A stretch of DNA of 64,000 bases, from positions 19,651 through 83,650 of the forward strand of contig CAYRXH010000002.1 of assembly GCA_964428185.1 (NCBI GenBank), in the 5' to 3' direction. This document shows positions 23,507 to 62,678 of the stretch, in pieces. The stretch's first letter is position 1, and each line of letters opens with the position of its first letter. Origin of the DNA: an uncultured Bacteroidales bacterium (GTDB lineage Bacteria; Bacteroidota; Bacteroidia; Bacteroidales; DTU049). The translations under genes and the position numbers were made by a program. The notes under the pieces are model-generated. The model was not told the origin of the DNA and did not search any database. It worked only from the letters and a program-made list of their open reading frames with translations.

Positions 23507-23720
23507 GAAAAGCTTTTTAATTTTTTTTCACTATTGTCAGGAAAAAATGTTTAAAGTTTGAAAAGCCTTGAAAATATTGTGTTTTAGAGATTCTTATGCG
23601 AGCTGGGGCTTACTTATGAAAGTGGCAAATTTGTAAATCATAAAATACTCACATTCAAAATATTATGTTTTGAAAAAACAAAATATTTATTTTTATCGGA
23701 CAATAATGATTAAAAGATTG
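23507..23720 (+). repeat. ~215-nt intergenic repeat, copy 1 (second copy inverted at 57938..58151)
   Basis: Shared blocks with the reverse complement of 57938-58151: ttcactattgtc, tttaaagtttgaaaagccttgaaaatattgtgtttt, agctggg, tggcaaatttg, tatgttttg, tttatttttatcg, acaataatgatt. Confidence 0.75.
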
Positions 23721-23816
23721 GAAGATTCTTAGATTGCGTGATGGTGTTGTGCTTGTGACTGGCTATTAGTGATTGGTGAGGGGTAAAAAACACTTCGACA
23801 TTCGATATTTCATGGA

Positions 23817-24140
23817 GGGACTCCTTTGGAGCAATATTCATTATTCTATACCTTATACTTTATCCTTTAGAAAATAGAAAATATTTCCTTTTGCCTTGTA
23901 CATTTTCCCTTATACCCTTATACCCTTATACCCTCCACCTCTATACCTCTATACCCATATACCCCTAACCCGCCTGTCAGTTCGAGTAGACCACGTAGAG
24001 GTCGTATTGAGAACATGTAGCCACTTCTCGATACTCCCTCCTGCGTCGGGCACTCGAAGTGACACAACTGTCATACAGAGGGATTGATAGACGAAAATCA
24101 TACTATGGCGTTATTTCTGCAATCCCGAAGTATCTCATAC
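23817..24140 (+). repeat. structured intergenic element, copy A (88-nt four-helix core 23976-24063, flanking hairpin 24073-24133)
   Basis: Aligns with 39907-40106. Its right flank aligns with the reverse complement of 40256-40371. See findings. Confidence 0.75.
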
Positions 24141-24228: not shown

Positions 24229-24258
24229 AGTGTAAAGCGAGATAACTCACTTCACACT
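24229..24258. terminator. imperfect hairpin terminator downstream of the AOR gene
   Basis: agtgtaaagcgag-ataa-ctcacttcacact (11 of 13 pairs), flanked by A6 and T4. On the minus strand it follows the AOR stop by ~30 nt. Confidence 0.5.
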
Positions 24259-24288
24259 TTTATCTTTTCACTTTCACCTTTCACCTTT

Positions 24289-26445
24289 CTACTGAAGAGG
24301 AGTAACAACTTCAAGAACTTCAGGAAGGTCCATTCCCAGATCTTTCAGTCTTTCGATGGTAGGAACCCCGTTGGGTGTCCAGCCACGTCTTTTATACACA
24401 GCGTCGAGGAGTTTTTCGTACTGATCTTCGCGGTGTTTTCTGAGAAATGCCATTTTTTCCTGAGTGCTTTTTCCAGCGGGATCAATACCAAGAAGGTCTT
24501 TCAGTTGACCATCATAACGCTCTTGCCGTGATTCATATTCTTCAACTGTAACAGGGCCTGCAGCACGATAAGGCTGTGCGTCATGTTTTCTTAGTCCGTA
24601 TCCGCGGCGGATGTTAAAAATCCTCTGGAACTGATATACCCTTTCACTCTGGCGGATGAGTTCCTCTTTGGTAAAATCGTTGCCGGTAACTGCTTTGTAT
24701 ATGGTAACATAATTATCAACGTGCTCGGGCACCTTGGCAGGTTCAGCCTGAAGGTGGTTGTCGGCAGGTTCTACATCATTCCATGGCAGTTTGCACAATC
24801 CTTGAAGTCCGAACCATGTTCTGAACATGGGGAAATAATACAAGGCCTCGGCTTTCTTTTCAAATGTAGGAATCTGATTGTTGACCATATCCATGAAAAT
24901 CAGCCAGGCTTCGTCATGCTGCGGACCTTTGTTGGTCATTGCATATCCACCCTGTTGTGCCAGTGATTCTTTGGAGATATATTGGCTGTATTCAAGACCT
25001 TTGTTTTCCATAGCTATATCTGTAATAAACATTGGATCTCCCCAGCCTTTTTCGATAAACATTTCTTTCATCTTGCGGACACCCATTCCGGCAATCACAC
25101 CAAAACCCTCACTGCGTGCCAACTGATGCAATAGTTCCATGGCATCATTTTCACTGCCAAAACTCAGATCCAGACCACAGGTGCGTTCTTTATTGAGGAT
25201 ACCGTTTTCATAACATTCCATGACAAAACCCATGATGGTTCCCCATGTTATTGTACAGATACCGTAAGTGTCACAGTAGAAGTTTGCTTCGATGGTCCAT
25301 TCGGGATTGAAAATTCCCATGTTTGACCCCAGCGATGAAGTTGTTTCATATTCGGGACCGTCAACAATGACCTTTTGTCCCTTGTAGGGACCGGTTTTCA
25401 GTTCAAAATTATCAACACCCTTAGCACAGCTCATATTACAACCAATCCAGCAACCGTCAGGAACTCCCTGTGTGAAATAACTCATCCACACATCACCGTG
25501 AATTTTATAAGCGTCAGGGTGAATTCCGAATTTGAAATTGTGAACTGGAAGCAAATCATAGTCATTCATGATGTTTGTAAGGTGAGCTGTCCCCTTTTTG
25601 CGCATTTCACACTGTGAATCATCAAGCTCACGCATTTCTTTGTTAAAGCGGCGACCGCGTTCCATGATGGCTTCAATGTCAACAACATTGTTGATGTTTC
25701 CTGTAATACCAGGGATTTTTGCAACGATGGCTCTGATTTTTTTGTCACGGAGGACAGTCCCTGTACCCCCGCGTCCGGCCTGTTTCAGTCTGATTTTTTT
25801 ACGCTTGTTGTCGTAAAAAGTAAAGTTCAACATTCCAATCAGTGAATGGTCAGCAGCATCTCCTGCAGAGACAATTCCGATATTTTTCTTGTCCTTTTCG
25901 TCAGTTGCGAAAAGATCAGTCAGTTCTTCAGCAAGCAGGTGAGAGTCATGAGAAAATCCGGGATCTTCAAAAATCTCAATTCTGCCTGTTACTCCGTCAA
26001 GATAAATCACCACATCCTTTTCTGCTTTGCCCTGAATCTCAATTGCATCAAAACCGCACACCTTGAGAAAAGGACCAAAGAATCCACCCACATTACTGTC
26101 GATGGGGATGTCCGTCTGGGGAGATATGGTAACGACTATGGACTTGCCTGCCCCTGAATATTGGGTAATACCACAGATGGGACCTCCGGAGATAACTAAT
26201 TCATTTTCAGGATCATTCCATTTTGTTGTGGGGAGTGTGGCTTCCCACAACAATTTTAAACCATACCCCTTCCCTCCAATGAATTTTTCTTTCATCATGG
26301 GGGGAACATCCTTAATACTGAATTCAGTATTGCCAACATTCACATAGAGAACTTTGTCTGTATATCCCTTGTTAATGGAAGTCTTTTCATAGGTTAGCTC
26401 TTTCAGAATGTGTCGGCTCTTTTTAATTTCTTCAATGTTAATCAT
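24289..26445 (-). CDS. aor: aldehyde:ferredoxin oxidoreductase family (tungsto/molybdopterin) enzyme
   Basis: 718 aa with an AOR N-terminal domain (GYTDKVLYVNVGN...KFIGGKGYGLKLLWE) and a long alpha-helical AOR C-domain. Confidence 0.88.
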   Translation of the reverse strand: MINIEEIKKSRHILKELTYEKTSINKGYTDKVLYVNVGNTEFSIKDVPPMMKEKFIGGKGYGLKLLWEATLPTTKWNDPENELVISGGPICGITQYSGAGKSIVVTISPQTDIPIDSNVGGFFGPFLKVCGFDAIEIQGKAEKDVVIYLDGVTGRIEIFEDPGFSHDSHLLAEELTDLFATDEKDKKNIGIVSAGDAADHSLIGMLNFTFYDNKRKKIRLKQAGRGGTGTVLRDKKIRAIVAKIPGITGNINNVVDIEAIMERGRRFNKEMRELDDSQCEMRKKGTAHLTNIMNDYDLLPVHNFKFGIHPDAYKIHGDVWMSYFTQGVPDGCWIGCNMSCAKGVDNFELKTGPYKGQKVIVDGPEYETTSSLGSNMGIFNPEWTIEANFYCDTYGICTITWGTIMGFVMECYENGILNKERTCGLDLSFGSENDAMELLHQLARSEGFGVIAGMGVRKMKEMFIEKGWGDPMFITDIAMENKGLEYSQYISKESLAQQGGYAMTNKGPQHDEAWLIFMDMVNNQIPTFEKKAEALYYFPMFRTWFGLQGLCKLPWNDVEPADNHLQAEPAKVPEHVDNYVTIYKAVTGNDFTKEELIRQSERVYQFQRIFNIRRGYGLRKHDAQPYRAAGPVTVEEYESRQERYDGQLKDLLGIDPAGKSTQEKMAFLRKHREDQYEKLLDAVYKRRGWTPNGVPTIERLKDLGMDLPEVLEVVTPLQ

Positions 26446-26482: not shown

Positions 26483-26668
26483 TGAAATTATTCTGCATTT
26501 TCAAACTTTAGGAACTCCAAATTTTTGGAATTTGATTTTGATGTTTATCATAACTGATATGGACAAAGAACTTTATATTTTACGTTATCAGAGTATTATA
26601 AAAAATATTTTCTGGCTGTTTCCAAATTTCAGATAGTGATTTTATATATTTTCTCTATAAAAAGTAAA

Positions 26669-26742
26669 GAGTAGAGAGTGCAAGTGATGAGAAACTGCAA
26701 TTTCTTTCTCTATCTCTACTTACTACTTGCTACTTTTTTTTT
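26669..26742 (+). repeat. hairpin + T9 module, copy 1 (copy 2 at 60771..60841)
   Basis: The shared consensus, with copy 1 / copy 2 variants in brackets, is gtagagagtgcaagtg[atgag/cag]aaaaactgcaatttct...ctctactt[a/c]ctacttg[c/a]tac followed by T9. Confidence 0.75.
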
Positions 26743-26754
26743 CGGTTGTGTGTA

Positions 26755-26778
26755 AATTAAAATGTTCATGTAAATTTG
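26755..26778 (+). promoter_or_regulatory. promoter cassette copy 1 (-7 box TAAATTTG at 26771-26778)
   Basis: gtgtgtaaattaaaatgttcatgtaaatttgta matches the cassettes at 60907-60939 and 62607-62639 at 30 of 33 positions by my count. Confidence 0.6.
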
Positions 26779-26798
26779 TAGAAATATTTAATTTAAAA

Positions 26799-27733: not shown

Positions 27734-27810
27734 AAACAGAGCGAGTGTGAGAGTTAGTGTGAAGCACTTACGACCACTCTCGCTCTGTTTCTCTAAACTC
27801 ACACTCACAC
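27734..27810 (+). repeat. tRNA-trailing hairpin plus conserved CA-rich tail, copy 1
   Basis: aaacagagcgag...ctcgctctgttt (12 bp plus 3 more), followed by ctctaaactcacactcacac. The homologous module lies on the minus strand at 58208-58285. Confidence 0.75.
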
Positions 27811-39105: not shown

Positions 39106-39852
39106 ATGAAAAAAAGTACTGTAATGTTGTTGTCTGCACTTGTGGTAACAATGCTGGCAATGCTCGTTGCCATATTGTTGATTAACAGGTATGTTGAGAG
39201 AAATATTGAATATGGTAGCGGAAATTTTATTAAAAAGGAATATCAACAGGGAGAGTTTCAGAACATATCAGTTGCAGGATTGTTTGAGATTACGCTTAAA
39301 CAGGCATCTGTTCCAAAGGTCACTGTGACAACCCATGATAATTTTCAGAAGTATATTGCAGTTTCTGTCAGAAACAACACATTATTTGTGAGCAACAAAA
39401 ATGTTTTTCAGCCACTGGGATGCAAAATTGACATTCAAAGTCCGCAATTCAGCAGAATCAATCTGCAGGGAGGAACGCAATTGATTGTTCAGGACAGTAT
39501 TGTTTCCGAGAACTTATATATTTCTGCAGATGGTGGAGTTAATGCTAAAGTTACCGGAGTTTTCCAAAGTCTCAATGTGATCGTTTCAGCCGGTTCTTCA
39601 GTCACACTGAGGGGGAGTTCAGAGTTTGCTGAATTTGATATTTCAGCAGGATCAAATCTGATGGCTGTTCAAATGCCTGTCGATTCGTGCAATATTACTT
39701 CTAATGCAGGCTCTGATGCTGAGATTTTTGTAACAGGAATTCTCAGTGCAAATGTGCTTGCCGGAAGTACAGTGATCTATCATGGAAATCCTGAAACAGG
39801 TGCAATGAATGTGGAATCAGGAGGATCTTTGGTGCCGAAGAGGGATGATTAA
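39106..39852 (+). CDS. DUF2807/GIN-domain (putative auto-transporter adhesin head-like) protein
   Basis: 248 aa with an N-terminal TM anchor, followed by repetitive beta-strand units (...GSSVTLRGSSEFAEFDISAGSNL...AGSTVIYHGNPE). Confidence 0.65.
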   Translation: MKKSTVMLLSALVVTMLAMLVAILLINRYVERNIEYGSGNFIKKEYQQGEFQNISVAGLFEITLKQASVPKVTVTTHDNFQKYIAVSVRNNTLFVSNKNVFQPLGCKIDIQSPQFSRINLQGGTQLIVQDSIVSENLYISADGGVNAKVTGVFQSLNVIVSAGSSVTLRGSSEFAEFDISAGSNLMAVQMPVDSCNITSNAGSDAEIFVTGILSANVLAGSTVIYHGNPETGAMNVESGGSLVPKRDD

Positions 39853-40106
39853 AAGATTAAGCCTAAGGCTTCACTTATCCCAAGCCAAAGGCTTCCCTAT
39901 GGGATAGGGACTCCTTTGTAGCAATATTCAATATTCATGATTCTATACCTTTTCCCTTATACACTTATACTTTATACCCTTTTACCACCTCTATACCCAT
40001 ATACCCCTTACCCGCCTGTCAGTTCGAGTAGACCACGTTGTGGTCGTATCGAGAACATGTTGCCACTTCTCGATACACCCGCTGATGCGGGTACTCGAAG
40101 TGACAC
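39846..40106 (+). repeat. structured intergenic element, copy B (87-nt four-helix core 40018-40104)
   Basis: Aligns with 23707-24065. The core differs from copy A at 4 of the first 59 nt plus a replaced fourth hairpin. Confidence 0.75.
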
Positions 40107-40255
40107 TTTAAGTAGCTTTTGATTTTTACCCTCACAATGCCATTTCCCCTTTAGGGGCAAGTGGCAAATGCGAATGTTCAAAAAAATCAAAAACATATCA
40201 TCGCCTTATAGTTTGGCAAAACAAGACCACGGAAAGAGAAGGATCTCATTCATTT

Positions 40256-40371
40256 GTGATACTTCGGGATTGAGAATATTCAGCCATAGGCTAGGTTTCT
40301 CGCAACAATCCCTATGTATGACAACAGTGTCAGTTCGTTTAGATGCAAAATATCGTATCGAGAAGTGTCAC
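40256..40371 (-). repeat. inverted, truncated third copy of the same element (flanking hairpin 40259-40319 plus partial core)
   Basis: Matches the reverse complement of 24061-24140 (atacttcgggattg, gccatag, caatccct.tgtatgaca) and continues into gtgtcagttcg...gtatcgagaagtg. Confidence 0.65.
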
Positions 40372-40400
40372 TTATTGGATATATAAATAGGTTATTAAAT

Positions 40401-40430
40401 AAAAAGGTTGCAGGAAACGGCAACCTTTTT
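40401..40430. terminator. bidirectional rho-independent terminator
   Basis: aaaaaggttgc-aggaaacg-gcaaccttttt. Lies 20 nt downstream of the giant gene's stop, between convergent transcription units. Confidence 0.85.
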
Positions 40431-40449
40431 GTTGGTTGTTATTGTCGTA

Positions 40450-43400
40450 TTATTCTTTTACCATTTTTCGTGTAAGTTGTTTTTGGTCAAAAGTAATAGA
40501 GTAGTAGTAGAGACCGGCTGCCATTGAACGTGTATTCAGAAGAATTGCATGTTGTCCTGTAGCATAGTCAGCACTTTCAGAGTAAATGGTTTCACCAAGA
40601 ATATTAGTCACTGTGAAAACAACCTGTCCTGCTTCCGGGATGGTGAATCCGATAGTTGTTTCATCAGCAGCGGGATTTGGTATGTTCTGCATCAGAATAA
40701 TTCCGTCAAGGCTGAGTTCTTCCACTCCGATAATCATTCCCTGGCAGAACTGATCATTAGTGGTAATGGCGTCACCTGCTATTGCAGTTTTTGCGCAAAG
40801 CTGGTAGTCAGCCGAAGGACTTGTAAATGTAGTAACAAAAGTATAATCGGTTTCAGCTCCGGGAGCCAAAGGTGTGGTAATCAGTTCGGTTGTTTGAGGA
40901 ACTCCGTCAATAAGGAACTGAACAGGGACTGAGTTGAGTGTTTGCAATCCATGGTTTTTCACACGAATAGTAACAGTGACATTCTGACCTGCCCAGGTGA
41001 AACCTGAAGGACTGATAATTGAGATCACTCCACCATCAATATTTGCGGGTCCTGCATTTAAGGTAACACATGTAGTGTCATTGAAATCGTATGTATCACC
41101 GCTGAGGTTTGTCCAAGAGCATAGGTCATAGACACTCTGGAACGGGCCTGTAAATGTAGTTGGGAAGGTGAATGATGTTTCAGCATCAGGAGCCAGCGAA
41201 CCAGTCCATGTACCGTTCACCGGAGGTGCACCTGTCATCAGTCTGTAAGTTACAGGAATTGATGTCAGAGTTTGAGTACCGAAGTTTTTCAGTCTTACAG
41301 TCACCTGATTCTGTGCGCCTGTTGCAGATTGTCCCACGGGAGCTTCAATTGCAATCACACCTGCATCATTGGGTATCTGAGGCTGGTAGATTGTAAAGTC
41401 ATCAACAGCCCATCCATTATATGTTACAGATGCATTTGAAAAGAAATGGAATCTGAACTGAACAGGAAGCGGGAAGTAATCAAATGCAGAAAGGCTGATT
41501 TCTGAATACTGCCATCCTGCAGATGAACCTGAGAATCCGGGAGCACTTGCAATGTTAGCAGTATTATACCAGTTGGTTCCTGTTGGATCATTGAGAACAC
41601 CCAAAGTGAGCCATGTGGAACCACCGTTGGTTGAATACTGAATCTTGCCACCGTCAACACCGTTTTCAGTGTCAAGCCAGTGCCAGAATCCAAGAGCCAT
41701 ATTGTTTACATTGCTGAAATTAAACTTGGGAGTGTATAAATAGTAGTTGCTGTTGTTATTGTAGTTCCCATTGAGTAGAGTTGCCCAGGCATTAACGGGG
41801 CTGTAGGCAGAATCAATCACTGTTGCACTTGGTATTCCAAGTTGCCACTGATTGTTGGTTCCGGCAATATACCAGTAATTTGTTGATTCAAAATCATCAA
41901 AGTATGGTACTGACAATACAGGAAGTCCGTATCTGTTTTCGCAGATTTCGTTGTTGCCGGGAATGCCGTCGCCTGCCAGATCTGTTCTTACACAGATTGT
42001 GTAATCGCCATCAGGGACAGTAAACGGAGTAGTAAATGTATAAATGTCTTCCTCATCAGCGGCAATTGATCCTGTCCATGTTTCGGTCACAGGTATGCCG
42101 CCATTGATTGTATATGATACAGGAACAGATGTGAGTGTGGAAGAACCGTAGTTTTTAATGGTAATCTGCATATTGATAGCTGATCCGCCATCTTCCATAG
42201 CATCCACGTTGTCAATTGATACGGCTCCTGCATCCAGAGGAGCAAGGATACGGATGTTGATGTCATCAATGTATGAATACCAGTTTGCAGCAGGGCTATA
42301 TGCATACCATCCGAAGTAATATATTCCGCTGGTCGTAGGTGTATAAATTGCAGTTGCAAGCTGATGAGTTGTGTTGGTAAAGAGTTGCAGCTGAAGTAAA
42401 GTGTCAATAACTGCTGTGTTTATCGGATCAGTTGCTACAACCAGGTCAGTGTTCTGGGCATATGTTGCACTTTCAGCACGATACCAGAAGTCAATCTTGT
42501 ATGCAGTGCCGGCTTCAAGATAGAAGCATTCGCTGAAGAGATAGTCATTTCCGGGATTGGTGCTGCCATTATAGAATCGTGCTGATTTGGATCCTGTGTG
42601 AGCAAAGGTTGTACTGTTATAACCTGGTTCCCAGGTACGGGCGTCACTGTTCAGGTCGAGGACTGTCCACTGACTGTAATCTTCACCGACTTCGAATCCC
42701 ATAAAGTAATCAGATGAATAGAAGTCATGACCTGATTTAATCGTGTAGGTAAGAGTATCATTGAATGCAATTCCGTCACCTGCCAGGTCCACTTCGAAGT
42801 ATATTTCATATACGCCGGGAGCAGATAAGTCAGCAGTTTGAGTAAATGCATAGTCAGTAACATCTCCTACTACAAGAGTGTCAGACCAGACCTCTGAAAC
42901 GGGAGTGCCTCCATTGATTGAGTACGATACATTCATAGAGAAGATTGTATCAAGCCCCAGATTTTTCACTCTGACAGTGATGATTTCAGCATTGCTTAAT
43001 CCGCAGCCTGCAATGGGAGAGATTCCCTGTACAACAGCAGCATCAATGCTGGCAGGAGTGTATTCATCCGCACCGATTGCAGGAGCTACAGGATCACGAA
43101 GATCACCATCAAAGTCATCGGAAATTTCAATGATGGGAGTGCCACTAGCCCAAAGTTGTGTGGTTGAAGCATGAAGATCTGTAGGAGAATAGTAGAAAGG
43201 ATTCCCTACTTGTGAGTTGAGGTCGTTTCCTGCAGGTGCATTCACTGACTGCAAAGCTGTTAGGTCTGCTCTTGCTGCTCCGTAGTAGACAAAATTTGTT
43301 CCGGTGCTATAATAGTTATTGTAGTCATGCGCCAAATAGTTGGTTGTCCCTACTGAATAGTGAGCATAACCGGCACCTGTTCCTGTAAAGGCGAGGGAGT

Positions 43401-46400
43401 TATTGCGGAAATCTGTTTGTGTTGCAGTTGAATTAATATAAGTAGCACGTCCGGTAATTCCGTTCATATTTATACTATTATACCACACATTGACTTTTTC
43501 AACAGTGGTAATATATAACCCTGTTGCTGTTGAAGCAGTTGAAGTAAATCCACCACCAATCATATTGTTTGAAATTGTTGAAGGAATTGTAGTTGGAATT
43601 GCTGATGTTGCAGTAACATATATACCGTAGGCACCAACATTTGTGATCTTGTTTTTATTGATTTCAAAAGGAGGAGCAATATTGGAATGGTAGATGCCGT
43701 AACTTGAAGTGGTGGTTGTTGGAAGAGTTCGTCCAATAACAATGTTGCTGTTGACTTTGGCCTGATCAAGTTGCAGTACATAGATGCTATAATAATACTG
43801 GTCTTTTAAAGTATTGTTGATGATTTCCACATCCTGCATTCTGGAAGCTGAGAGACCATAAAGGATAATTCCGTAGTATCCTCCGTTGATTGTGTTGCCG
43901 TCAAGAAGCAAATCAGTGACTGCATTTCCTCCTGTTGTTGCAGAAGTGGCGCTGCCGCTGGCTACAAAGCCGGCATAGTTCGTTGAACTTGCTGTTGTGT
44001 TAGTGTTCAATGTACAATTTGTAAACTGAATATCTTCGCAGCCATTCATCAGATGAACTGCCCATCCATATGTGGCATTTGCTTCTGCCTCAATGGTCAG
44101 GTTTTCAAACCTCATGTGTTTTGCACTGTCCAGTTTTAAAACATAGCGTTCTGCATTTACTGATGGACCATAGGATAAAACTGCATTGCCGTTACCAACG
44201 AATGTAATAGTATTGGTAGCGTCTGTGCCGGGAATATCATTCAATCTGACTTGTTCATAATAAGTACCCTGTTCTACAATAAATGTAACAGGACAACTGA
44301 TCCCCCAGTTTTGCAAACCATTTACTGCTTCGTTAAATGTTGTAAAGTCAGGATTTGTACCGCCGATATGATACACACCACACAGAGGTTCGTATGCTTC
44401 AAGCTGATAGTAGGCTGTATCATTGATGTTGATCAGATCAGTTCCACCATTGGGACTTTCTGTCCATGCAATGATTTCATTGTTCCCTAATAAAAATGTT
44501 GTAGATCCGATTGTAATATCAGTGGCAGTTTCGCCGGTCGCAAGAATTCCTGTCCAGTTATATGGAGTCTGCGCTAAGCCGTTGACAGTCCAGTGAATTT
44601 CAACAGCAGTAAGAGTATCTGATCCGTAGTTCTGAATGGTAACCTTTACATCATTAGCTTGCAGGTTGGCCGGATCAAATGGTTCGTCAATTGATACTAC
44701 GCCAGCATCAAGGTTGGGGATGCTTGTTGTGTCAATAATTGCCCATACTTCGGCACGGTCACTTTCGCAACCACCAGCAACTGATTCATAGAAAAATTCA
44801 CCGTTGAACATTCTGAGGTTGTTTGTGCCTCCGAAAGGAGAGCAGAGTCCAATTCCACTTTCAAATGATAAAGTAGAGTTGGCAACTACAGTAGTTGAGG
44901 TAACATTTGTGTAATTGGCATTATACTGTACATATATTCCCATGAGTTGTTCGTTGGGGAGAATTAAATCATCACATTGAAAATAGACCGGAACATCTAT
45001 GGTTGCATTTACGGTATATGTTCCAAGAAGTGTCCAGTTACCGGGTGTGAGTTCGGATCCAAGATATGTACCTGTTTTGTAATAAATACTGACAGGGAGT
45101 GCAGCATCTGAAGAGTTGGGAAGTATTTTCATGCCTGTGATTTTAATATCACCATCAATTGCTGTTAGGTTAAACATATTTCCACCTCCGCAGCCATTGC
45201 CCATTGCATATGAAATTTCAAGAGAATCTTCAACAAAAGTACCTTCACTTGCGCCCACATAATATGGAGTATTCGCATATAGGATTGGGGTCACATACAC
45301 TGCTCCGGTATCAATTACAACATCTGAAGTTGGAGAGTCGTACCATTTGAGCATATATGTGGAAGAGGCTGTGAGGGTTGCCTGTGTTGCATAGGGGATT
45401 GTGTCATTTTCAACGAGAGGCAAGGGAGCAATAAATCCTAAAGTTGCTGATTTACTTGTTGTATCATTCAGCTGATACCAGTCACCCGGATGTTCAACCC
45501 AAGCTGTGATTGTTATTGTTGTATCCCCGGTGGTGAGGTTTAAATCAAACGTTGTTGCAAATGTATAATCTGCAGTATCTCCGGGAGCAACAGTGATTGT
45601 TACGTTTTCTGTAACAGGAGTGCCACTGTCTATCTGATAAGAAGCAGTGAGTCCTGACATAATGGTATCTGTTCCGAGATTTGTAAATCTTATGCTGACT
45701 TCATTTGCATCACTTGAACAATCTTCATTAAGAGGATTAACGACTTCAACAATGGAAGGTTCATATTGTGGAAGAGTGACGTGAGCAGTTACAGGGACCC
45801 TTTCGCTTGAGCAGCCAGGTGCACCAACCTCCCAGTTGTAAAAATAATAATAAAGATCGTTTCTCGGAGTGTTTGTGGGATGTGCTGTAAGTGTACTAGT
45901 GTTGAGGGTAATTATCCCTGGTATTGAAAACGGATAGCCATAGTTCCCGGATGGAGCTGATGCTGATGGTTCAAACAGGAGACCTGAAATACCAGTAAAA
46001 GCTGGTCGCATTTTAAGATTGGTCCCTATCTGAAGATTGAAGTCTAGCTGAATGACATGGGGAGAAGGTGTTCCTGCAGGACCACCGGTAACATTCGCAG
46101 TTGTAGTATGTAAAACAGTTCCCGTTCCATCAATAATATCAATGGTTACTGTTCCTGAAGCACTGGTTGCACTCACAGGATAAACTGTAACTGATTTCAG
46201 AAGTGTCGGTGAGAAAACATCAAAGACAATCCCGAAATTTGTAGTGCCAGTTCCACTTGTGGCAGTTGGAAGTGCAGCAGGTAATCCGATATTCTGTAGT
46301 GTGCTGTTTGATGATTCAGCCCAATAGGTTGTAGTAACAAAGAGAGGAGGTGTATTTAACGTATCTCCCTGATGAATTGATGCCTGAGATAAAGAATCGG

Positions 46401-49400
46401 GAAACCAGTAGATTGTAGAGTTTGAACTTGCAATGAGCTCAGCAGGATAGCCATAATTAATATAGTCATCCTGAACAACAGGAGTATCAGGAACAAACCT
46501 GAATGTTTTTGTGATTTGTAGAGAATCATTGTCATGATATGGGTCTCCAGAAATATTGACGAATGTATTCAGTACAAAAGTTGTATCACTTGTGATTAAT
46601 CCGAAGTTCAGAGGGGTAGTGAATGTGAAACTTGCTGTGTCATAGGTAGGAATCGTCAGAGTAACAACTTCATTAACAGGAGTTCCTCCGTCAACAGTAT
46701 AGCTTGCATTGAAAGCGAAAACGGTATCAATACCGGTATTTGTAATATTAATGGTAACAAATTCATCTTCTCCGTTATGGCACAATTCATCATCTGGTGA
46801 TGTAATATCAATGACTGACAGATTGTAAGGGGGAATGTTCACTGTAATAAATACAGTGTCAGTGAAAGTACCACATGTGTTGGTAAAGGTAGCAACGTAA
46901 TCATACTGTCCGTTCACAGTCCATGTCCCTACAACAGTATCGGTATTGTTCACACTAGTGATAATACCTTCCAGACTCCAGTCGAACCCCGATAATGAAG
47001 CCGGAGCGGGAGGTGTAACATTGTTATTGAGGATATTAGGATTCTGTGGCGAAGTTCCTGAGTTGATCCAGTTTGTAGCATCATTTGTATATGGTCCTTC
47101 CAGCCTGTTTCCGGCACTGCTGACTGCAGGAGTGGTGCCGGTCCAGATATCAGGAGTGATTCCGGCGGCAACAGGGAAAGTCATATTTCCGTAAACTACG
47201 GCATCAACGATATCACCTTCGGTGTCTTTAATGACATAACCCTGTGGAATTGTTGAACTTAAGGTTGCAGTATGTCCGGAATGGTAATAGAAATTAGCAG
47301 GACTTGGAACACTACTTCCAAGTTGTCCAGTTGCAATAATACATATTCCGTTCGGGCTTAATACAGTACCAGGGGCAAGAATTTGTGCACCTGCAAGTGC
47401 TGATGATGACCAGATTTCAAGAGTATACCCGGAGATATCAGTATTGGGAGATCCGGTAATTTCAATATAATCGTCAGCAATCAGATATGAAGGCCATCCG
47501 CCAGAAGGAGCTCCGGTTGAGGAGCCTGCGTATTGACAGACTTCAGTGATAAATACTGAAGATGAAGGAAACATATTTGAAGTAACAGATAAATCAACTG
47601 TTTCTCCGGGAAGCATGACAGTAAATGAGTCAGGTGATGCATTGAACGTATATGCAGGGACAACAATGGAAAATGCAGGAGATAATGTATCATTGATAGT
47701 AAAAAAGTTGAGCATACTTGGTTCAATGAATGCATTGAGTGTGTATGTGCCGGGAACAGACATGTCAATTCCGTCATCTGATAAAATCAAATCCGCTCCG
47801 GGATTGAGTTTTCCTGTTGAAACAGTGATGGTTCCGTTTGTATTTACCGGACCAGTGACATTCCATGTGATTTGAAGTGGGAAGATACTGAAATCTGCTG
47901 TATCACCAATGATATTGCTGATAGTAAGATATAGACTGTCGTTATTGTTTAAACAAAGACCTCTAATAAGTTCGCCGTTGGTAATGCCAAGGTCGTGAGC
48001 CACAGGTGTGTATTCAACACAACCGATATCGGGAGTTGATGGGTCTCGGGGATTACCAAAGAAGTCAACTGTAATTCCTGCAATTGGAGTAGCTTTGCCA
48101 TCAAGTTGTGGTCCCAGAGGTTGAAGATCAAGAGGAGAAGAAAACACTGGGTCACCAACATATGAATTAAGATCATTTCCTGCAGGTATATTGACAGCTT
48201 GCAGAGCTGCAAGATTTGCACGTGCTGCTCCGTAATAGACGAAGTTGGCACCGTTGCTGTAGTAGTTGTTGTAATTATGAGCTACAACACTTGCAGTTGA
48301 TTGAACATTAGTGGCGTAGCCTGTAGTGCCTCCGTAATATCCAAATGAGTTATTTCTGATGTTGAGGTTGGTAACACCTGATACGACATATAGACTTCTT
48401 CCTGCCCCGGCAATGTTCACATAAACTGTATTGTAATAAATGCCGATATTTCCGCCTGAAGATAAATAAATTCCTGAAGGGGTTGCAGCTCTGAAGCCTC
48501 CGCCAATCATGTTGTTGGCAATGATTGATTGTCCTGAAGGTGCTGTGGATGAAATCACATAAATACCATAGGTGCCGGCATTGATAATCTTATTTCTGTT
48601 TACATCAAAATTACCATAATCATAACCTACATAAATTGCATAATGTAATGTGGTTCCACCAGTAGTACGTGCATCACAGAAATTCCCAATTATTTTGGAA
48701 GAGTTGACATAAGAATTTCTTACATTGTAATAATAAGCATTGTTCAGTGTGTTGTTGAGAATCTCAATTCCTGTAAGAGGTGTTGCGCTTGCACCGTTAA
48801 AGCTTATGCTGTAGTATCCGCCATTGATAGTATTGTTTTCAATTAAAATGTTATTGGCAGAATTTCCTGTTGTAGTTGCTGAAGTAGCCGACCCTGAAGC
48901 AATAATACCTGAATGATCAGATAAAGTTGATGTGCTGTGAACATTAATAGTACAGTTTGTAATTTCAATGTATTCTGTCTGGTTGGTCATAAAAAATGCC
49001 CACCCGTACGTTGAAGTATTTGGAATTGTTACCGTCAAACTGTCAAATCTCAAGTATTTTGCTCCGTTCATGTAAATGGCGGCACGATCAGCTGAAACAG
49101 TAGTCGTATACTGAATCATTGTTCCTGTGGTACCTCTGAAAGTAATAGTATTTGTAGATGAAGCACCGGGAAAAACACCGTTAAACACCAATCGGGTGTT
49201 AAAGGTGTCAGCAGCTACTTCAAAAACTACCGGACCATTGACGCCGCAATTTGTCAAAGCCATCATTGCATCGTCAAAAGACTGGAAGTTGGTGCCACCT
49301 GTCACCATTGAACTGTCAATGGTATAGGTTCCGCTGAGGATTGACTGGCATGCCCAGAGATTGACCAATGAAGTATCATTATTATTGTTGAGGTCAATTC

Positions 49401-51219
49401 CTGCATTGGGGTTTGTTGTCCAGACTTTCAGTTCATTGTTGCCGTCGGCAAAGGTGGCAATTCCGATATTGATGTTGGCAGCGACCATATCTTCTGTAAG
49501 CCATCCGGTCCAGTTGAATGTTCCCTGAGGAACCCCGTTAACTGAATACTGAATATCAACAGCGGTAAGCGTATCAGAACCGAAATTCTTGAGAGTCACA
49601 TACACAGGAGTGGGAACACTAGTAATCTGCGTCCCTGTGGGGCCTGTGATGGCTGTAATGCCAGCATCAAGAGTGTAAACTGTTGCATCAATGAAGAATT
49701 TGGTATCTGGTCTGTATTTATAGGAGGCAATTGTTGCATTCAGCGCAGTAGCACCAGTAATAACTGTGGTTCCGGTCCTTGCAATAATTGAGGTTTCTGT
49801 TCCGCTTGAGTATTTCCAGTCAAATTTGTCGGTAGCATAAGGAGATGGTCCGGCAAAAGTTACATTGGTTGCCATTTCCAGGCTGCCTCCGGTGTAAACG
49901 AAAGGAGTTGTCAGGGTCACTTCGTGCCACCCTGATACAGCAGGCACCTGATGGTTTGCATTGCTGTATACCATTGTAAAATTATCCAGAACATACTGCC
50001 AGGTTGTTGTTGACAATGGCGGGACATTGGCTGTATTGGCTAAATAAATTGTAAAAGAAAGTGCATTTGCATTGGTTCCTCCGGCACCTGCTTTATCCCA
50101 GGCGAGTTTTGTAATGGTCATTCCCGGATATATTCCGGCTGCATTGAGCTCTGCAGCTGTCCAGACAACCACAGATGAAGCATTTGTTGTTGTAGAAGTG
50201 CTGCTGAATCTGTATATTGGACTATAAAGTGTGTTTCCCGGAATCAAGCCTTCAGTACCAACAATGGTCTCGGCAGCTGCCTTTTTGGTGTAATACCAAT
50301 AGGTTGATGTTGTTGTATTATTTGAAGCAGGTGGGTTATCAAAGGCTGAAACATACCAGTCAACATGAGTATTGAGAGGAACACTTGGAATAGATCCTTC
50401 ATAAATATCACCTGTTGTGTTTGTCATGACAATCGTGTCTGTAACGGCATTGACAGTATAAATAAGCAGTGCTTCGTCAATACCTGAAGCATCAGTGATT
50501 GTTGCTGAAACCATAAATGGTCCTGTTCCGGTGAGAGTGTCCTGGGGTATAGGTGCAATCAGCGAAATTGTCGGAGGGATAAGTTCATTTGGTGAACCGA
50601 TGATTTTTATATCATCCAGAAACCATCCGGCATGCAGGTTGGCTCCGTTTCCGTTACCGTCTTTCATGCGAAATTTAATTCTTACCTGTGACTGATTGGC
50701 CGCAATCGAAGACAGATCAAACTGTTCTTTCATCCACCAGCTGTTTGTTGGAACAGCTGGTGGTACTGAAGCCTCCCAAAGAGTGGGATAGGCTGTTGCT
50801 GTGAATTTGTCGCCACTGGTTGAGAACTGACTTCCGTTCAGATTGATATACTGAGTACTGGTCAGTTTGGTCCAGTTGGTACCGTTGTCAGTAGAAATAA
50901 AAATTTCTCCTGCATCGAAAAATTCGATTTTACAAATATGATAAAATTCCAGCAGCACAAAATTGTAACCCGTAAAATCCATCACATCAGTGATGACCCA
51001 TGATGAATCATTCAGGGCAATTGTGTTGATGTAGGAATTTGTGCCGCTCACCTGCAGAGTATTGTTGATTGACCATGCGGGAACGCCTCCGGGAGTAACG
51101 ACATAGGTGCCGCCCTCGAAATTTTCATTCAATACAGTTGTTTGTGAAAAAACACTGAATGAAAAAACGAAAATTAAAACCGGAAAAATGATGTGTCTGA
51201 AAAATGAAAATGATTTCAT
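40450..51219 (-). CDS. giant (3589 aa) T9SS-secreted cell-surface protein with duplicated CARDB-like + parallel beta-helix modules
   Basis: Single uninterrupted ORF with signal peptide MKSFSFFRHIIFPVLIFVFSFSVFSQ. Contains repeated NFGSDTLT / NYGSDTLT Ig-like (CARDB-type) domains and two ~555-aa modules rich in NNTINGGYYGI / NNMIGGGF turns (right-handed beta-helix type). Also has a lamin-tail-like segment and a C-terminal T9SS domain ...IPNPAADETTIGFTIPEAGQVVFTVTNILGETIY...AAGLYYYSITFDQKQLTRKMVKE. Confidence 0.9.
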   Translation of the reverse strand: MKSFSFFRHIIFPVLIFVFSFSVFSQTTVLNENFEGGTYVVTPGGVPAWSINNTLQVSGTNSYINTIALNDSSWVITDVMDFTGYNFVLLEFYHICKIEFFDAGEIFISTDNGTNWTKLTSTQYINLNGSQFSTSGDKFTATAYPTLWEASVPPAVPTNSWWMKEQFDLSSIAANQSQVRIKFRMKDGNGNGANLHAGWFLDDIKIIGSPNELIPPTISLIAPIPQDTLTGTGPFMVSATITDASGIDEALLIYTVNAVTDTIVMTNTTGDIYEGSIPSVPLNTHVDWYVSAFDNPPASNNTTTSTYWYYTKKAAAETIVGTEGLIPGNTLYSPIYRFSSTSTTTNASSVVVWTAAELNAAGIYPGMTITKLAWDKAGAGGTNANALSFTIYLANTANVPPLSTTTWQYVLDNFTMVYSNANHQVPAVSGWHEVTLTTPFVYTGGSLEMATNVTFAGPSPYATDKFDWKYSSGTETSIIARTGTTVITGATALNATIASYKYRPDTKFFIDATVYTLDAGITAITGPTGTQITSVPTPVYVTLKNFGSDTLTAVDIQYSVNGVPQGTFNWTGWLTEDMVAANINIGIATFADGNNELKVWTTNPNAGIDLNNNNDTSLVNLWACQSILSGTYTIDSSMVTGGTNFQSFDDAMMALTNCGVNGPVVFEVAADTFNTRLVFNGVFPGASSTNTITFRGTTGTMIQYTTTVSADRAAIYMNGAKYLRFDSLTVTIPNTSTYGWAFFMTNQTEYIEITNCTINVHSTSTLSDHSGIIASGSATSATTTGNSANNILIENNTINGGYYSISFNGASATPLTGIEILNNTLNNAYYYNVRNSYVNSSKIIGNFCDARTTGGTTLHYAIYVGYDYGNFDVNRNKIINAGTYGIYVISSTAPSGQSIIANNMIGGGFRAATPSGIYLSSGGNIGIYYNTVYVNIAGAGRSLYVVSGVTNLNIRNNSFGYYGGTTGYATNVQSTASVVAHNYNNYYSNGANFVYYGAARANLAALQAVNIPAGNDLNSYVGDPVFSSPLDLQPLGPQLDGKATPIAGITVDFFGNPRDPSTPDIGCVEYTPVAHDLGITNGELIRGLCLNNNDSLYLTISNIIGDTADFSIFPLQITWNVTGPVNTNGTITVSTGKLNPGADLILSDDGIDMSVPGTYTLNAFIEPSMLNFFTINDTLSPAFSIVVPAYTFNASPDSFTVMLPGETVDLSVTSNMFPSSSVFITEVCQYAGSSTGAPSGGWPSYLIADDYIEITGSPNTDISGYTLEIWSSSALAGAQILAPGTVLSPNGICIIATGQLGSSVPSPANFYYHSGHTATLSSTIPQGYVIKDTEGDIVDAVVYGNMTFPVAAGITPDIWTGTTPAVSSAGNRLEGPYTNDATNWINSGTSPQNPNILNNNVTPPAPASLSGFDWSLEGIITSVNNTDTVVGTWTVNGQYDYVATFTNTCGTFTDTVFITVNIPPYNLSVIDITSPDDELCHNGEDEFVTINITNTGIDTVFAFNASYTVDGGTPVNEVVTLTIPTYDTASFTFTTPLNFGLITSDTTFVLNTFVNISGDPYHDNDSLQITKTFRFVPDTPVVQDDYINYGYPAELIASSNSTIYWFPDSLSQASIHQGDTLNTPPLFVTTTYWAESSNSTLQNIGLPAALPTATSGTGTTNFGIVFDVFSPTLLKSVTVYPVSATSASGTVTIDIIDGTGTVLHTTTANVTGGPAGTPSPHVIQLDFNLQIGTNLKMRPAFTGISGLLFEPSASAPSGNYGYPFSIPGIITLNTSTLTAHPTNTPRNDLYYYFYNWEVGAPGCSSERVPVTAHVTLPQYEPSIVEVVNPLNEDCSSDANEVSIRFTNLGTDTIMSGLTASYQIDSGTPVTENVTITVAPGDTADYTFATTFDLNLTTGDTTITITAWVEHPGDWYQLNDTTSKSATLGFIAPLPLVENDTIPYATQATLTASSTYMLKWYDSPTSDVVIDTGAVYVTPILYANTPYYVGASEGTFVEDSLEISYAMGNGCGGGNMFNLTAIDGDIKITGMKILPNSSDAALPVSIYYKTGTYLGSELTPGNWTLLGTYTVNATIDVPVYFQCDDLILPNEQLMGIYVQYNANYTNVTSTTVVANSTLSFESGIGLCSPFGGTNNLRMFNGEFFYESVAGGCESDRAEVWAIIDTTSIPNLDAGVVSIDEPFDPANLQANDVKVTIQNYGSDTLTAVEIHWTVNGLAQTPYNWTGILATGETATDITIGSTTFLLGNNEIIAWTESPNGGTDLININDTAYYQLEAYEPLCGVYHIGGTNPDFTTFNEAVNGLQNWGISCPVTFIVEQGTYYEQVRLNDIPGTDATNTITFVGNGNAVLSYGPSVNAERYVLKLDSAKHMRFENLTIEAEANATYGWAVHLMNGCEDIQFTNCTLNTNTTASSTNYAGFVASGSATSATTGGNAVTDLLLDGNTINGGYYGIILYGLSASRMQDVEIINNTLKDQYYYSIYVLQLDQAKVNSNIVIGRTLPTTTTSSYGIYHSNIAPPFEINKNKITNVGAYGIYVTATSAIPTTIPSTISNNMIGGGFTSTASTATGLYITTVEKVNVWYNSINMNGITGRATYINSTATQTDFRNNSLAFTGTGAGYAHYSVGTTNYLAHDYNNYYSTGTNFVYYGAARADLTALQSVNAPAGNDLNSQVGNPFYYSPTDLHASTTQLWASGTPIIEISDDFDGDLRDPVAPAIGADEYTPASIDAAVVQGISPIAGCGLSNAEIITVRVKNLGLDTIFSMNVSYSINGGTPVSEVWSDTLVVGDVTDYAFTQTADLSAPGVYEIYFEVDLAGDGIAFNDTLTYTIKSGHDFYSSDYFMGFEVGEDYSQWTVLDLNSDARTWEPGYNSTTFAHTGSKSARFYNGSTNPGNDYLFSECFYLEAGTAYKIDFWYRAESATYAQNTDLVVATDPINTAVIDTLLQLQLFTNTTHQLATAIYTPTTSGIYYFGWYAYSPAANWYSYIDDINIRILAPLDAGAVSIDNVDAMEDGGSAINMQITIKNYGSSTLTSVPVSYTINGGIPVTETWTGSIAADEEDIYTFTTPFTVPDGDYTICVRTDLAGDGIPGNNEICENRYGLPVLSVPYFDDFESTNYWYIAGTNNQWQLGIPSATVIDSAYSPVNAWATLLNGNYNNNSNYYLYTPKFNFSNVNNMALGFWHWLDTENGVDGGKIQYSTNGGSTWLTLGVLNDPTGTNWYNTANIASAPGFSGSSAGWQYSEISLSAFDYFPLPVQFRFHFFSNASVTYNGWAVDDFTIYQPQIPNDAGVIAIEAPVGQSATGAQNQVTVRLKNFGTQTLTSIPVTYRLMTGAPPVNGTWTGSLAPDAETSFTFPTTFTGPFQSVYDLCSWTNLSGDTYDFNDTTCVTLNAGPANIDGGVISIISPSGFTWAGQNVTVTIRVKNHGLQTLNSVPVQFLIDGVPQTTELITTPLAPGAETDYTFVTTFTSPSADYQLCAKTAIAGDAITTNDQFCQGMIIGVEELSLDGIILMQNIPNPAADETTIGFTIPEAGQVVFTVTNILGETIYSESADYATGQHAILLNTRSMAAGLYYYSITFDQKQLTRKMVKE

Positions 51220-57904: not shown

Positions 57905-57937
57905 GGGGGGGGTGTTGAAGATTATACTTTTTTTTAA

Positions 57938-58151
57938 ATCATTATTGTTCGATAAAAATAAAAAAGATGTTTTTACAAAACATAAATATCTGAATATAAG
58001 CATTATAAAATTTTGCAAATTTGCCATTTTCAAAATTAAGCCCAGCTTGTAAAAGATTCTAAAAAAACACAATATTTTCAAGGCTTTTCAAACTTTAAAT
58101 GCTTTAAATGTTTTTTTCCGGACAATAGTGAATTTTTAAAATAATCTTTTC
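57938..58151 (-). repeat. ~215-nt intergenic repeat, copy 2 (inverted relative to 23507..23720)
   Basis: See copy 1. It ends next to the corA stop and poly-G tract. Confidence 0.75.
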
Positions 58152-58207: not shown

Positions 58208-58285
58208 GTGTGAGAGTGAGTTTAGAGAAACAGAGTGAGAGTGCTCGTGAGAGCGAGAGCTATCACGAGCACTCTCACTCTGTTT
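58208..58285 (-). repeat. tRNA-trailing hairpin (perfect 23-bp stem) plus conserved CA-rich tail, copy 2
   Basis: On the minus strand: aaacagagtgagagtgctcgtga-12 nt loop-tcacgagcactctcactctgttt, then ctctaaactcactctcacac. It starts at the last base of the tRNA-Leu CCA. Confidence 0.8.
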
Positions 58286-60674: not shown

Positions 60675-60770
60675 AGAGTTTAATGCAAATGGATGCAGTG
60701 AACATCTGCTGATCCATTTTAGACCAGTTCAGTTTTTTTTTGTATCTTTCCTCTAAAAAAAAGAAAAAGC

Positions 60771-60841
60771 GTAGAGAGTGCAAGTGCAGAAAAACTGCAA
60801 TTTCTCACTACTCTCTACTTCCTACTTGATACTTTTTTTTT
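60771..60841 (+). repeat. hairpin + T9 module, copy 2
   Basis: Outer stem gtagagagt...actctctac encloses tgcag-aaaaa-ctgca, followed by ttcctacttgatac and T9. Homologous to 26669-26742. Confidence 0.75.
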
Positions 60842-60860
60842 ATTCCCCGTTAAATAAATG

Positions 60861-60939
60861 ATTTATCCTGTTAGATTGTTTTTTTTCTAACAGGACAATT
60901 TAACGGGGTGAATGTAAATAAAATTTTCATGTAAATTTG
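60861..60939 (+). promoter_or_regulatory. palindrome + promoter cassette, copy 2 (TCCTGTTAGA 60866-60875 / TCTAACAGGA 60886-60895; -7 box 60932-60939)
   Basis: Nearly base-for-base identical to 62563-62639. Ends in TAAATTTG. Confidence 0.65.
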
Positions 60940-61016
60940 TTTACTTCTTTCCCTGGCTTGTTTATGGTAATTGCAAGTGCACTTTGTTAAAGGAAAACAG
61001 AAAAAACAGAACTGTT

Positions 61017-62423: not shown

Positions 62424-62562
62424 AATGAAAAGAAATCATGTTTGCTTGATTATGACATACAGGATAAGGAAAAGGGCCTGCCGTGGACAAATCCTGCACT
62501 GATCAGCAACATTCTTGATGAAAAGTACAAAAAGTTGCATTTATAACTTGAATTCAACAATT

Positions 62563-62639
62563 ATTTATCCTGTTAGATTGTTTTTTATCTAACAGGACAA
62601 TTTAACGTGAATGTAAATTAAAATTTTCATGTAAATTTG
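62563..62639 (+). promoter_or_regulatory. palindrome + promoter cassette, copy 3 (TCCTGTTAGA 62568-62577 / TCTAACAGGA 62588-62597; -7 box 62632-62639)
   Basis: See 60861-60939. The -7 box lies 40 nt upstream of the ppdK ATG. Confidence 0.65.
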
Positions 62640-62678
62640 TAAATTCAAAAAGATATAATCATAAATACTCTATAGAAA

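Follow-up and report, generated by a model that had tools for sequence, protein, structure and literature searches.

Miniature palindromic repeats paired with a single gene that they flank are a known kind of element in bacterial genomes, the REP/REPIN-RAYT systems and the MITEs (miniature inverted-repeat transposable elements) of insertion sequences (IS) being among those closest to the present case. Fungal mitochondrial double-hairpin elements are short mobile double hairpins associated with GIY-YIG genes. The present study concerns a window of 64,000 nucleotides (the whole stretch of DNA that was analysed, from contig CAYRXH010000002.1 of an uncultured Bacteroidales bacterium), in which a gap of 597 nt separates a DUF2807 gene (39106-39852, plus strand) from the gene of a 3589-amino-acid type IX secretion system (T9SS) protein (40450-51219, minus strand). 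This gap is shown to hold one complete (copy B, 39846-40106) and one decayed (copy C, 40258-40366, inverted and partial) member of a repeat family at a gene end, inserted or at least variably present; a further member, copy A (23706-24140), lies 16 kb upstream. Shared motifs show that the three belong to a family of double-hairpin repeats with half-units termed L and R, which in other genomes flank a gene for a GIY-YIG nuclease of the Slx1 family. A non-coding, non-autonomous DNA repeat related to that nuclease cassette has probably inserted twice in the gap.

In REP/REPIN-RAYT systems as here, short intergenic imperfect palindromes occur in many copies with inverted doublets as a frequent unit, the copies of a given genome make up a population of relatives, target-site duplications are lacking, and a small nuclease-type gene is flanked by the repeats (here syntenic in at least two genera). 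The partner differs, being a 96-amino-acid Slx1-family GIY-YIG nuclease and not an HUH/Y1 transposase; no RAYT (Y1/HUH) gene flanked by repeats was found among the open reading frames (ORFs) of at least 100 amino acids in the 118 family loci listed from other genomes. Also different are the ends (TGTCA...TGACA, the consensus lacking a GTAG or CGTC tag), the units, with their conserved asymmetric internal loop and hypervariable palindrome, and the placing of L and R on one strand in alternating arrays. Bacterial MITEs (Correia/NEMIS, RUP, MITEAba12) share with the present family terminal inverted repeats around a short non-coding interior, a longer relative with a gene between the same ends (here L-GIY-R), and an intergenic position near gene ends with presence varying between relatives. 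Unlike MITEs and DDE-type IS, however, the present elements have no target-site duplication, the gene between their ends is no known transposase, and their half-units also occur solo and in long tandem arrays. Ends made of hairpins with unpaired bases, the lack of target duplication and a plausible recognition as single-stranded DNA (ssDNA) recall IS200/IS605 and the palindrome-associated transposable elements (PATEs), but no TnpA(Y1) or TnpB gene is associated here and no orientation bias relative to GC skew was detected.

The GIY-YIG homing endonuclease genes are alike in that a small GIY-YIG cassette is present or missing at a given junction, but the protein here is a bare catalytic domain of the Slx1/UPF0213 branch, without a DNA-binding module and outside the I-TevI/UvrC branch. 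Unlike these genes and the fungal double hairpins, the gene here is bacterial and chromosomal, and the repeats gave no pattern match in 2.9 million viral contigs. Eukaryotic Slx1 has a catalytic domain of the same family and cuts branched DNA, and the L-R composite as ssDNA folds into a four-way junction; the predicted bacterial nuclease has, in contrast, no RING domain and no known Slx4-like partner. Integron attC sites differ in that unit ends do not fit GTTRRRY (RYYYAAC / GTTRRRY core sites) and no recombinase family is enriched near units. No covariance model of Rfam 15, including that of the Bacteroidota motif Flavo-1, matched at or near its gathering score; searches of the window at the gathering threshold, of both loci at E up to 10 and of 18 unit-rich loci elsewhere returned only tRNA, tmRNA and sub-threshold noise. 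A mir-320 match on the spacer between copies B and C was dismissed as noise (26 bits against a cut-off of 55).

The repeat units and their three copies in the window

The half-units have the forms TGTCAGTTCGAGT-hairpin-GTATCGAGAAC (L) and ACTTCTCGATAC-hairpin-ACTCGAAGTGACA (R). R is the reverse complement of L except for one flipped base pair and an unrelated central hairpin, and since the two are inverted relatives an L-R pair has TGTCA...TGACA terminal inverted repeats. The initial annotation had advised looking for such repeats, and they are present as TGTCAGTTCGAGT/ACTCGAAGTGACA, 13 nt with one mismatch. Three layers make up the DNA hairpin of a half-unit: outermost a short stem (N4/N4'), then an asymmetric internal loop that is conserved (GAGT / GTATCGA), and within it a palindrome that is near-perfect but variable in sequence. 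Membership was judged by the ordered presence of four conserved 11-mers, those of L being GTCAGTTCGAG...GTATCGAGAAC and those of R CTTCTCGATAC...CTCGAAGTGAC. Copy B is exact in all four and copy A has one mismatch (GTATTGAGAAC); in copy C the first R 11-mer (R5) is exact, the second (R3) has one mismatch within its last 10 nt, and ACT is lacking. The outer arms are complementary within the unit in 275 of 288 units, with nine pair types; they pair in L and R of copies A and B and fail to do so in copy C (GTTC with GAAG). The palindrome between the arms forms perfect 6-bp stems in both units of copy B, is weaker in copy A, and its stem is lost in copy C.

Covariation was followed in the central hairpins of 31 units of equal length, where 88% of the cells pair and the signal collapses when the partners are slid. 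Double-sided changes number 67, compared with 22 in shuffles, and none of 500 shuffles reached 67. The minimum-energy fold of L-R is a four-way junction, but its inter-unit (L5/R3) helix carries a systematic G.G mismatch. The junction was rejected as the conserved structure, the covariation supporting two independent unit hairpins, and a reading of the structured element as a single, RNA-like one is not favoured.

Copy B, first reported as a forward copy with the best-paired core, is borne out on both counts. It shares with copy A a block of 94 nt at 94% identity (39987-40080 and 23945-24038), a second of 54 nt at 80% (39906-39959 and 23816-23869) and a pyrimidine tract of period 7/8, and its ssDNA fold has an energy of -31.5 kcal/mol (z -9.0), where copy A reaches -23.8 (z -5.9). 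The pattern ACTTCTCGATAC-N8-30-CGAASTGACA has exactly three matches in the 64 kb, namely copies A, B and C, where 100 shuffles lead one to expect 0.00, and relaxed pattern searches of the window yielded no units beyond these. The inverted third copy is also real: 40255-40337 matches the reverse complement of 24055-24137 in copy A at 72% over 83 nt, and the GGGATTG/CAATCCC hairpin is kept. Its 33-nt loop (40273-40305) equals that of copy A (24087-24119) in length, as had been stated; the sequences differ only in part, the central CTATGGC being common to both. Only part of its core is left, again as claimed: the remnant does not fold, and it is chimeric, combining a 5' arm of L type (GTTC) with an arm of R type (GAAG), a mix seen in only 1-2 of 288 units elsewhere.

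Other details fared less well. Homology to copy A had been said to begin exactly over the DUF2807 stop codon. The 14-mer ATGATTAAAAGATT is indeed there, but as an isolated match (blastn-short E ~0.04) it makes a weak boundary, with continuous A/B homology starting only at 39906; in copy A the same 14-mer overlaps the end of a different repeat of ~200 nt (23510-23711 and 57937-58140). The hairpin reported in the spacer exists and is unremarkable (z -2.0; 7 of 200 shuffles fold equally well), and no homology to the spacer (40107-40255) was found elsewhere. A terminator scan flagged the hairpin at 40398-40433, the one terminator-like structure that closes the B/C gap, together with a weak site of 7 pairs (3 G-C) at 39894-39910 in the 5' part of copy B. 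As intrinsic terminators (a GC-rich hairpin with a T run after it) it flagged neither the L-R core nor the GGGATTG hairpin (Table 1).

Table 1. Features of the three repeat copies, the spacer and the tandem tracts (window coordinates unless a locus is named)
Feature	Position	Strand	Remarks
14-mer ATGATTAAAAGATT	39846..39859	+	same as copy A 23706-23719; overlaps DUF2807 stop codon 39850-39852; possible left border, weakly indicated
Lineage-specific 5' block (AGGGACTCCTTTG.AGCAATATTCA...)	39906..39959	+	copy A counterpart 23816-23869, 80% identity
Pyrimidine-rich tandem tract, period 7-8 (TATACCT / CCCTTATA)	39944..40006	+	detected by TRF; copy A counterpart 23907-23964
Copy B L half-unit: TGTCAGTTCGAGT, hairpin GACCAC-GTT-GTGGTC, GTATCGAGAAC	40017..40056	+
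Copy B R half-unit: ACTTCTCGATAC, hairpin ACCCGC-TGAT-GCGGGT, ACTCGAAGTGACA	40065..40105	+	with L forms the L-R composite, 8-9 nt linker
Unique spacer between the two elements	40107..40255		holds modest hairpin 40138-40167
Copy C accessory hairpin: GATAC-N3-GGGATTG, 33-nt loop, CAATCCC-N3-GTAT	40258..40319	-	homologous to copy A 24073-24133; z -3.05; specific to this lineage
Copy C decayed solo unit: ACTTCTCGATAC-17 nt-CGAACTGACA	40328..40366	-	GTTC/GAAG outer arms; no fold (z +0.55)
Terminator-like hairpin, A and T runs on both sides	40398..40433		z -4.5; next to giant-gene end (stop 40450); counterpart of the single terminator of the relative's 81-nt gap
Copy A L-R composite (L 23975-24014, R 24023-24064)	23975..24064	+	less strongly paired than copy B
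Copy A accessory GGGATTG hairpin	24073..24133	+	directly 3' of R; arrangement used for comparing copy C
Tandem tracts, window	23907-23964, 39944-40006, 24247-24289
Tandem tracts, other loci	L037 1-88; L136 1251-1317; L016 2982-3039; L028

Distribution and variable presence of the family

A scan of one genome per species recovered the module at no fewer than 118 loci, and the unit counts, contexts and ORF clustering given here are taken from the 118-119 loci listed. Most of these belong to Flavobacteriaceae and other Bacteroidota, with a few in metagenome-assembled genomes (MAGs) labelled Peribacteria, Dojkabacteria, Akkermansia and Chlorobiota, labels that could reflect binning errors. Exact units amount to 154 R and 90 L, including 50 L-R composites (linker up to 56 nt; in one the halves abut), and many solo units and arrays of up to ~10 units are also found. 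Intergenic positions account for 230 of the 244 units, and in 117 of 119 loci all units lie on one strand. In the genomes scanned, the repeat family is mainly one of Bacteroidota, widespread and intergenic. Tandem tracts of 7-8 nt, with a motif that differs per genome, often adjoin L and R units. Short tandem tracts are ~3 times denser within 150 nt of units, a comparison that is confounded by coding sequence and is not counted as evidence.

The presence of the element varies between relatives, a check that the initial annotation had set beforehand and that favours insertion at both loci in the window. In the closest relative (DUF2807 63% identical) the gene order is that of the window (Por_Secre_tail, ABC, a 255-amino-acid gene, GntR, DUF2807 and the giant gene on the minus strand), but the gap between DUF2807 and the giant gene measures 81 nt with a single terminator, against 597 nt in the window, and the DUF2807 protein ends in ...APL* there against ...VPKRDD* here. 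Given this short gap and different protein end, copy B, the spacer and copy C appear as extra sequence, and the border of the element as the source of the stop codon. At locus A, a relative with a 90%-identical aldehyde:ferredoxin oxidoreductase (AOR) has a 52-nt gap followed by a T9SS gene, lacking both copy A and the repeat that adjoins it. No units were found on the contigs of three relatives (~28 kb in total).

Variation was also seen in other genomes. In Xanthomarina, the ~95-nt repeats downstream of the GIY-YIG gene vary in number from strain to strain (340 against 850 nt). In Xanthomarina gelatinilytica (loci L128, L129 and L132), this sub-repeat, which ends in CTCGAACTGAC, ranges from 2 to ~8 copies between strains, and it is a natural variable-number tandem repeat made of half-units. 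A survey of 80 metagenomic relatives of the Tenacibaculum MoaC locus showed the MoeA|MoaC junction empty (1-nt overlap) in ~30, with a solo L unit in two (L164, L151), with a decayed L+R in one (L162) and with a full L-GIY-R cassette in four (L161, L163, L198, L204), like the Tenacibaculum reference locus (L137). In marine Flavobacteriaceae (loci L147-L226) this junction is a hotspot for small insertions, which also include a gene for a 111-amino-acid 23S_rRNA_IVP protein (a four-helix bundle), itself flanked by repeats of a separate kind (L160, L165, L179, L196), and small membrane-protein-like ORFs (L147, L152, L169).

The variable hairpins are more alike within a genome than between genomes (median distance 0.26 against 0.47, P = 4e-6), as is expected for copies propagating within a lineage. 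Target-site duplications, which the initial annotation had suggested looking for, were sought by inspection in the flanks of L-R composites (155 pattern matches, most composites counted once on each strand) and none was evident; the unit ends read T|GTCA...TGAC|A, with only T and A adjoining them. The behaviour of the family, in its array and junction variation and in the likeness of copies within a genome, fits a mobile or recombinogenic repeat, in line with the first suggestion of repeated insertion and decay.

Between the otherwise 94%-identical cores of copies A and B, the R hairpin has been exchanged wholesale (TCCCTCCTGCGTCGGGC at 24035-24052 against ACCCGCTGATGCGGGT at 40077-40093), and hairpins of the copy A type (CCTCC..CGTCGG loop) turn up again in distant genomes, a Dojkabacteria MAG among them (loci L019, L027, L096 and L101). 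This recurrence and the wholesale replacement suggest that the hairpin is a swappable or hypervariable module.

The nuclease gene and competing explanations

A gene of ~96 codons for a GIY-YIG protein was found by tblastn and profile search in 12 of the 118 loci selected by the motif, in every case with a unit 4-66 nt away; only 7.4% of the sequence lies within 150 nt of a unit. Reciprocally, when homologues were picked by protein search, without the DNA motif, the gene was flanked by units in all five genera (Mesoflavibacter, Xanthomarina, Mariniflexile, Tenacibaculum and Spongiivirga). In both sets the distance between gene and units stays within ~100 nt, with one locus at ~150 nt. A unit typically ends ~15-20 nt before the ATG and the next begins 0-8 nt past the stop. 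Four gene neighbourhoods are represented: Zn-peptidase|leuS (Mesoflavibacter, Xanthomarina), NosD|MBOAT (Mariniflexile), the inside of the molybdenum cofactor (Moco) operon (Tenacibaculum) and RNase R|PGK (Spongiivirga). The commonest order is L-[GIY]-R (6 of 14 two-sided loci), with L on the left in 10 of 14; other orders (L-L, R-L) and both gene orientations also occur. ORF clustering (at least 100 amino acids, 118 loci) revealed no family in more than five loci, no transposase-like cluster and no other protein family enriched near units; the GIY-YIG gene is the only one tightly linked to units in these loci. The searches from both directions show the repeat family and this Slx1-family gene to be tightly and reciprocally associated in the genomes examined, mainly Flavobacteriaceae with a few Bacteroidia MAGs.

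The 96-amino-acid protein is a bare GIY-YIG domain (PF01541) with no NCBIfam model match. It matches the UPF0213 structures 1zg2 (PDB, E = 4e-13) and 1ywl, the former having been classed as a bacterial member of the Slx1 family (PMC1564403).

A mechanism may be proposed that starts with the nuclease recognising or cutting a unit's extruded hairpin or junction; new sites would then receive copies of units through repair, gene conversion or transposition. The L-R composites such as copies A and B would be gene-less derivatives, comparable with the MITEs of an IS or the REPINs of a RAYT. Copy B is a complete lineage-specific composite (5' block, heptamer tract and L-R double-hairpin core) and copy C an inverted, decayed solo unit plus accessory hairpin, which the mechanism would make a copy in decay; their insertion has probably pushed the shared terminator ~550 nt from DUF2807 and replaced the DUF2807 stop codon. 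In our judgement it is about as likely as not that the Slx1-like nuclease has the units' hairpin or junction DNA as its substrate and drives their copying. The broader proposal, slightly more doubtful than that, is that the L/R hairpins and the 96-amino-acid gene constitute a class of bacterial mobile or hosted replicator for which no description was found, a GIY-YIG counterpart of REPIN-RAYT or IS-MITE, in which a bare structure-selective nuclease would cut the hairpin or junction DNA of its own flanking repeats and thereby spread gene-less copies through Bacteroidota and possibly beyond.

Several points weigh against this account. A profile search of the window in six-frame translation disclosed neither a GIY-YIG gene nor a decayed one anywhere in the 64 kb, the surroundings of copies A and B included, and the documented link with the nuclease comes from lineages other than that of the source, a Bacteroidales-like MAG. 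The 5' block, the tract and the GGGATTG hairpin are known, from the searches made, only from this contig: blastn of the non-core parts of the composite against ~120 loci of other genomes gave no match, and neither did a metagenome scan with the tract/L junction pattern. Around the nuclease gene, orientation and flanking unit types are not uniform, and in two genera it occupies one and the same syntenic site, as a domesticated gene might no less than a mobile one. Neither target-site duplications nor precise empty/filled junctions were recovered, no transposition was seen directly, and the variation in arrays could be plain unequal recombination. The relatives used for presence and absence share only 63-90% protein identity, and a deletion in them is conceivable. 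Finally, the matches in MAGs of the candidate phyla radiation (CPR), Akkermansia and Chlorobiota have no nuclease gene nearby and could be binning contaminants.

The main competing explanation is that the units are landing pads, the GIY-YIG gene being a homing-type cassette that targets pre-existing L/R repeats, which would themselves spread or persist by other means (another transposase, replication slippage, or a host function such as supercoiling or termination). It draws support from the gene lying either way round and between various types of unit (L-L, L-R, R-L), from the unrelated small cassettes at the MoeA|MoaC site, such as the 23S_rRNA_IVP gene, and from the many genomes and loci whose units have no such gene nearby. 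We nevertheless consider it unlikely: the surroundings of the units are not enriched in any other enzyme family, the synteny of the gene across two genera is unlike the behaviour of an actively homing gene, and the solo and composite units at one site resemble a cassette in decay. Copies B and C could alternatively be the ends of an inverted or invertible segment, produced by recombination between two inverted 11-mers, CGAAGTGACAC (40096-40106) and GTGTCAGTTCG (40329-40339); a flip of 40107-40328 would have separated the GGGATTG hairpin from R. Reversing it restores the order R-hairpin of copy A and puts all units on one strand, as in nearly all listed loci, and the chimeric L/R arms of copy C, so rare elsewhere, would be in keeping with it. 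Yet the repeats are short, a recombinase gene is lacking in the vicinity, the present orientation is the only one seen, and copy C has several further substitutions, with plain decay explaining the chimera; the inversion is thus very improbable. As for chance or low-complexity similarity, the 5' part is pyrimidine- and AT-rich and the isolated 14-mer is marginal, but the 94% identity of the A/B block, the pattern expectation of 0.00 and the recurrence of this specific module at 118 or more loci of other genomes make it hardly credible, and for the core, where low complexity had been named at the outset as a possible refutation, it is already refuted.

A structured non-coding RNA, transcribed on the plus strand from the DUF2807 operon and acting through its four-way junction as a 3'-untranslated-region stabiliser, processing site or small RNA, would agree with the very stable fold of copy B (z -9.0; -5.9 for a 265-nt RNA), with the covarying hairpins and with its place upstream of the only terminator, where it is probably transcribed. 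A plus-strand transcript had also been envisaged in the initial annotation, but no result favours a strand-specific one. Units are co-directional with flanking genes in 53 cases and antisense in 49, and unit-bearing gaps are commonly convergent (51) and rarely divergent (15), as one would see for elements tolerated at gene ends and not for a strand-specific transcript. Watson-Crick pairs make up 97% of the variable stems (1256 pairs, with 16 G.T pairs and 11 A.C mismatches). For a structurally selected RNA, frequent G.U pairing confined to one strand would be expected; G.T being no commoner than A.C, the stems are DNA-like. Unit orientation is unrelated to local skew, whether of GC or of AT (51 of 102 loci). 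Taken together, the outer stem that each unit has of its own, the Watson-Crick palindrome and the lack of orientation preference suggest a DNA-level repeat rather than an RNA. The lack of an Rfam match, the confinement of covariation to within units while the L5/R3 junction helix is mismatched, the absence of the element from orthologous loci and the varying copy number in arrays argue in the same direction, and an RNA function for the element is judged improbable, more so than the landing-pad explanation and a little less so than the inversion.

Other repeats and the meaning of the family

The window contains further repeats. A second repeat of ~200 nt is present in inverted orientation at 23510-23711 (plus) and 57937-58140 (minus), with 36 nt 100% identical (TTTAAAGTTTGAAAAGCCTTGAAAATATTGTGTTTT). 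It ends in ...TATCGGACAATAATGATT, directly abutting copy A, and its other copy lies downstream of two tRNA genes; it is missing from the relative L145. Long near-perfect hairpins with arms of 26-27 nt are found just downstream of tRNA genes at 27734-27810 and 58208-58285, and a 47-nt CTCTC/CACAC-rich block is common to both sites (89%). Dispersed intergenic repeats at 26628-26780, 60728-60941 and 62559-62641 (families D4, D6, D9 and D18; 74-97% identity) look like a repeated promoter or leader region.

Copies B and C account for ~550 nt of otherwise puzzling intergenic sequence and for an altered gene end. Such repeats inflate intergenic regions, displace terminators, create spurious ORFs and break assemblies, so that their recognition is useful for annotation. 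The family is a conspicuous one in Bacteroidota, with apparently no entry in Rfam and no description found in the searchable literature, whether searched by sequence string or by topic; its partner enzyme and unit architecture are new as far as Rfam 15 and that literature show. The sources searched assign no function to the large UPF0213 family. Should the nuclease act on the hairpins, a standalone Slx1-like GIY-YIG nuclease would gain both a substrate and a role. On the same condition, this would be a third class of enzyme, after the DDE and HUH transposases, that maintains miniature repeats in bacterial genomes.

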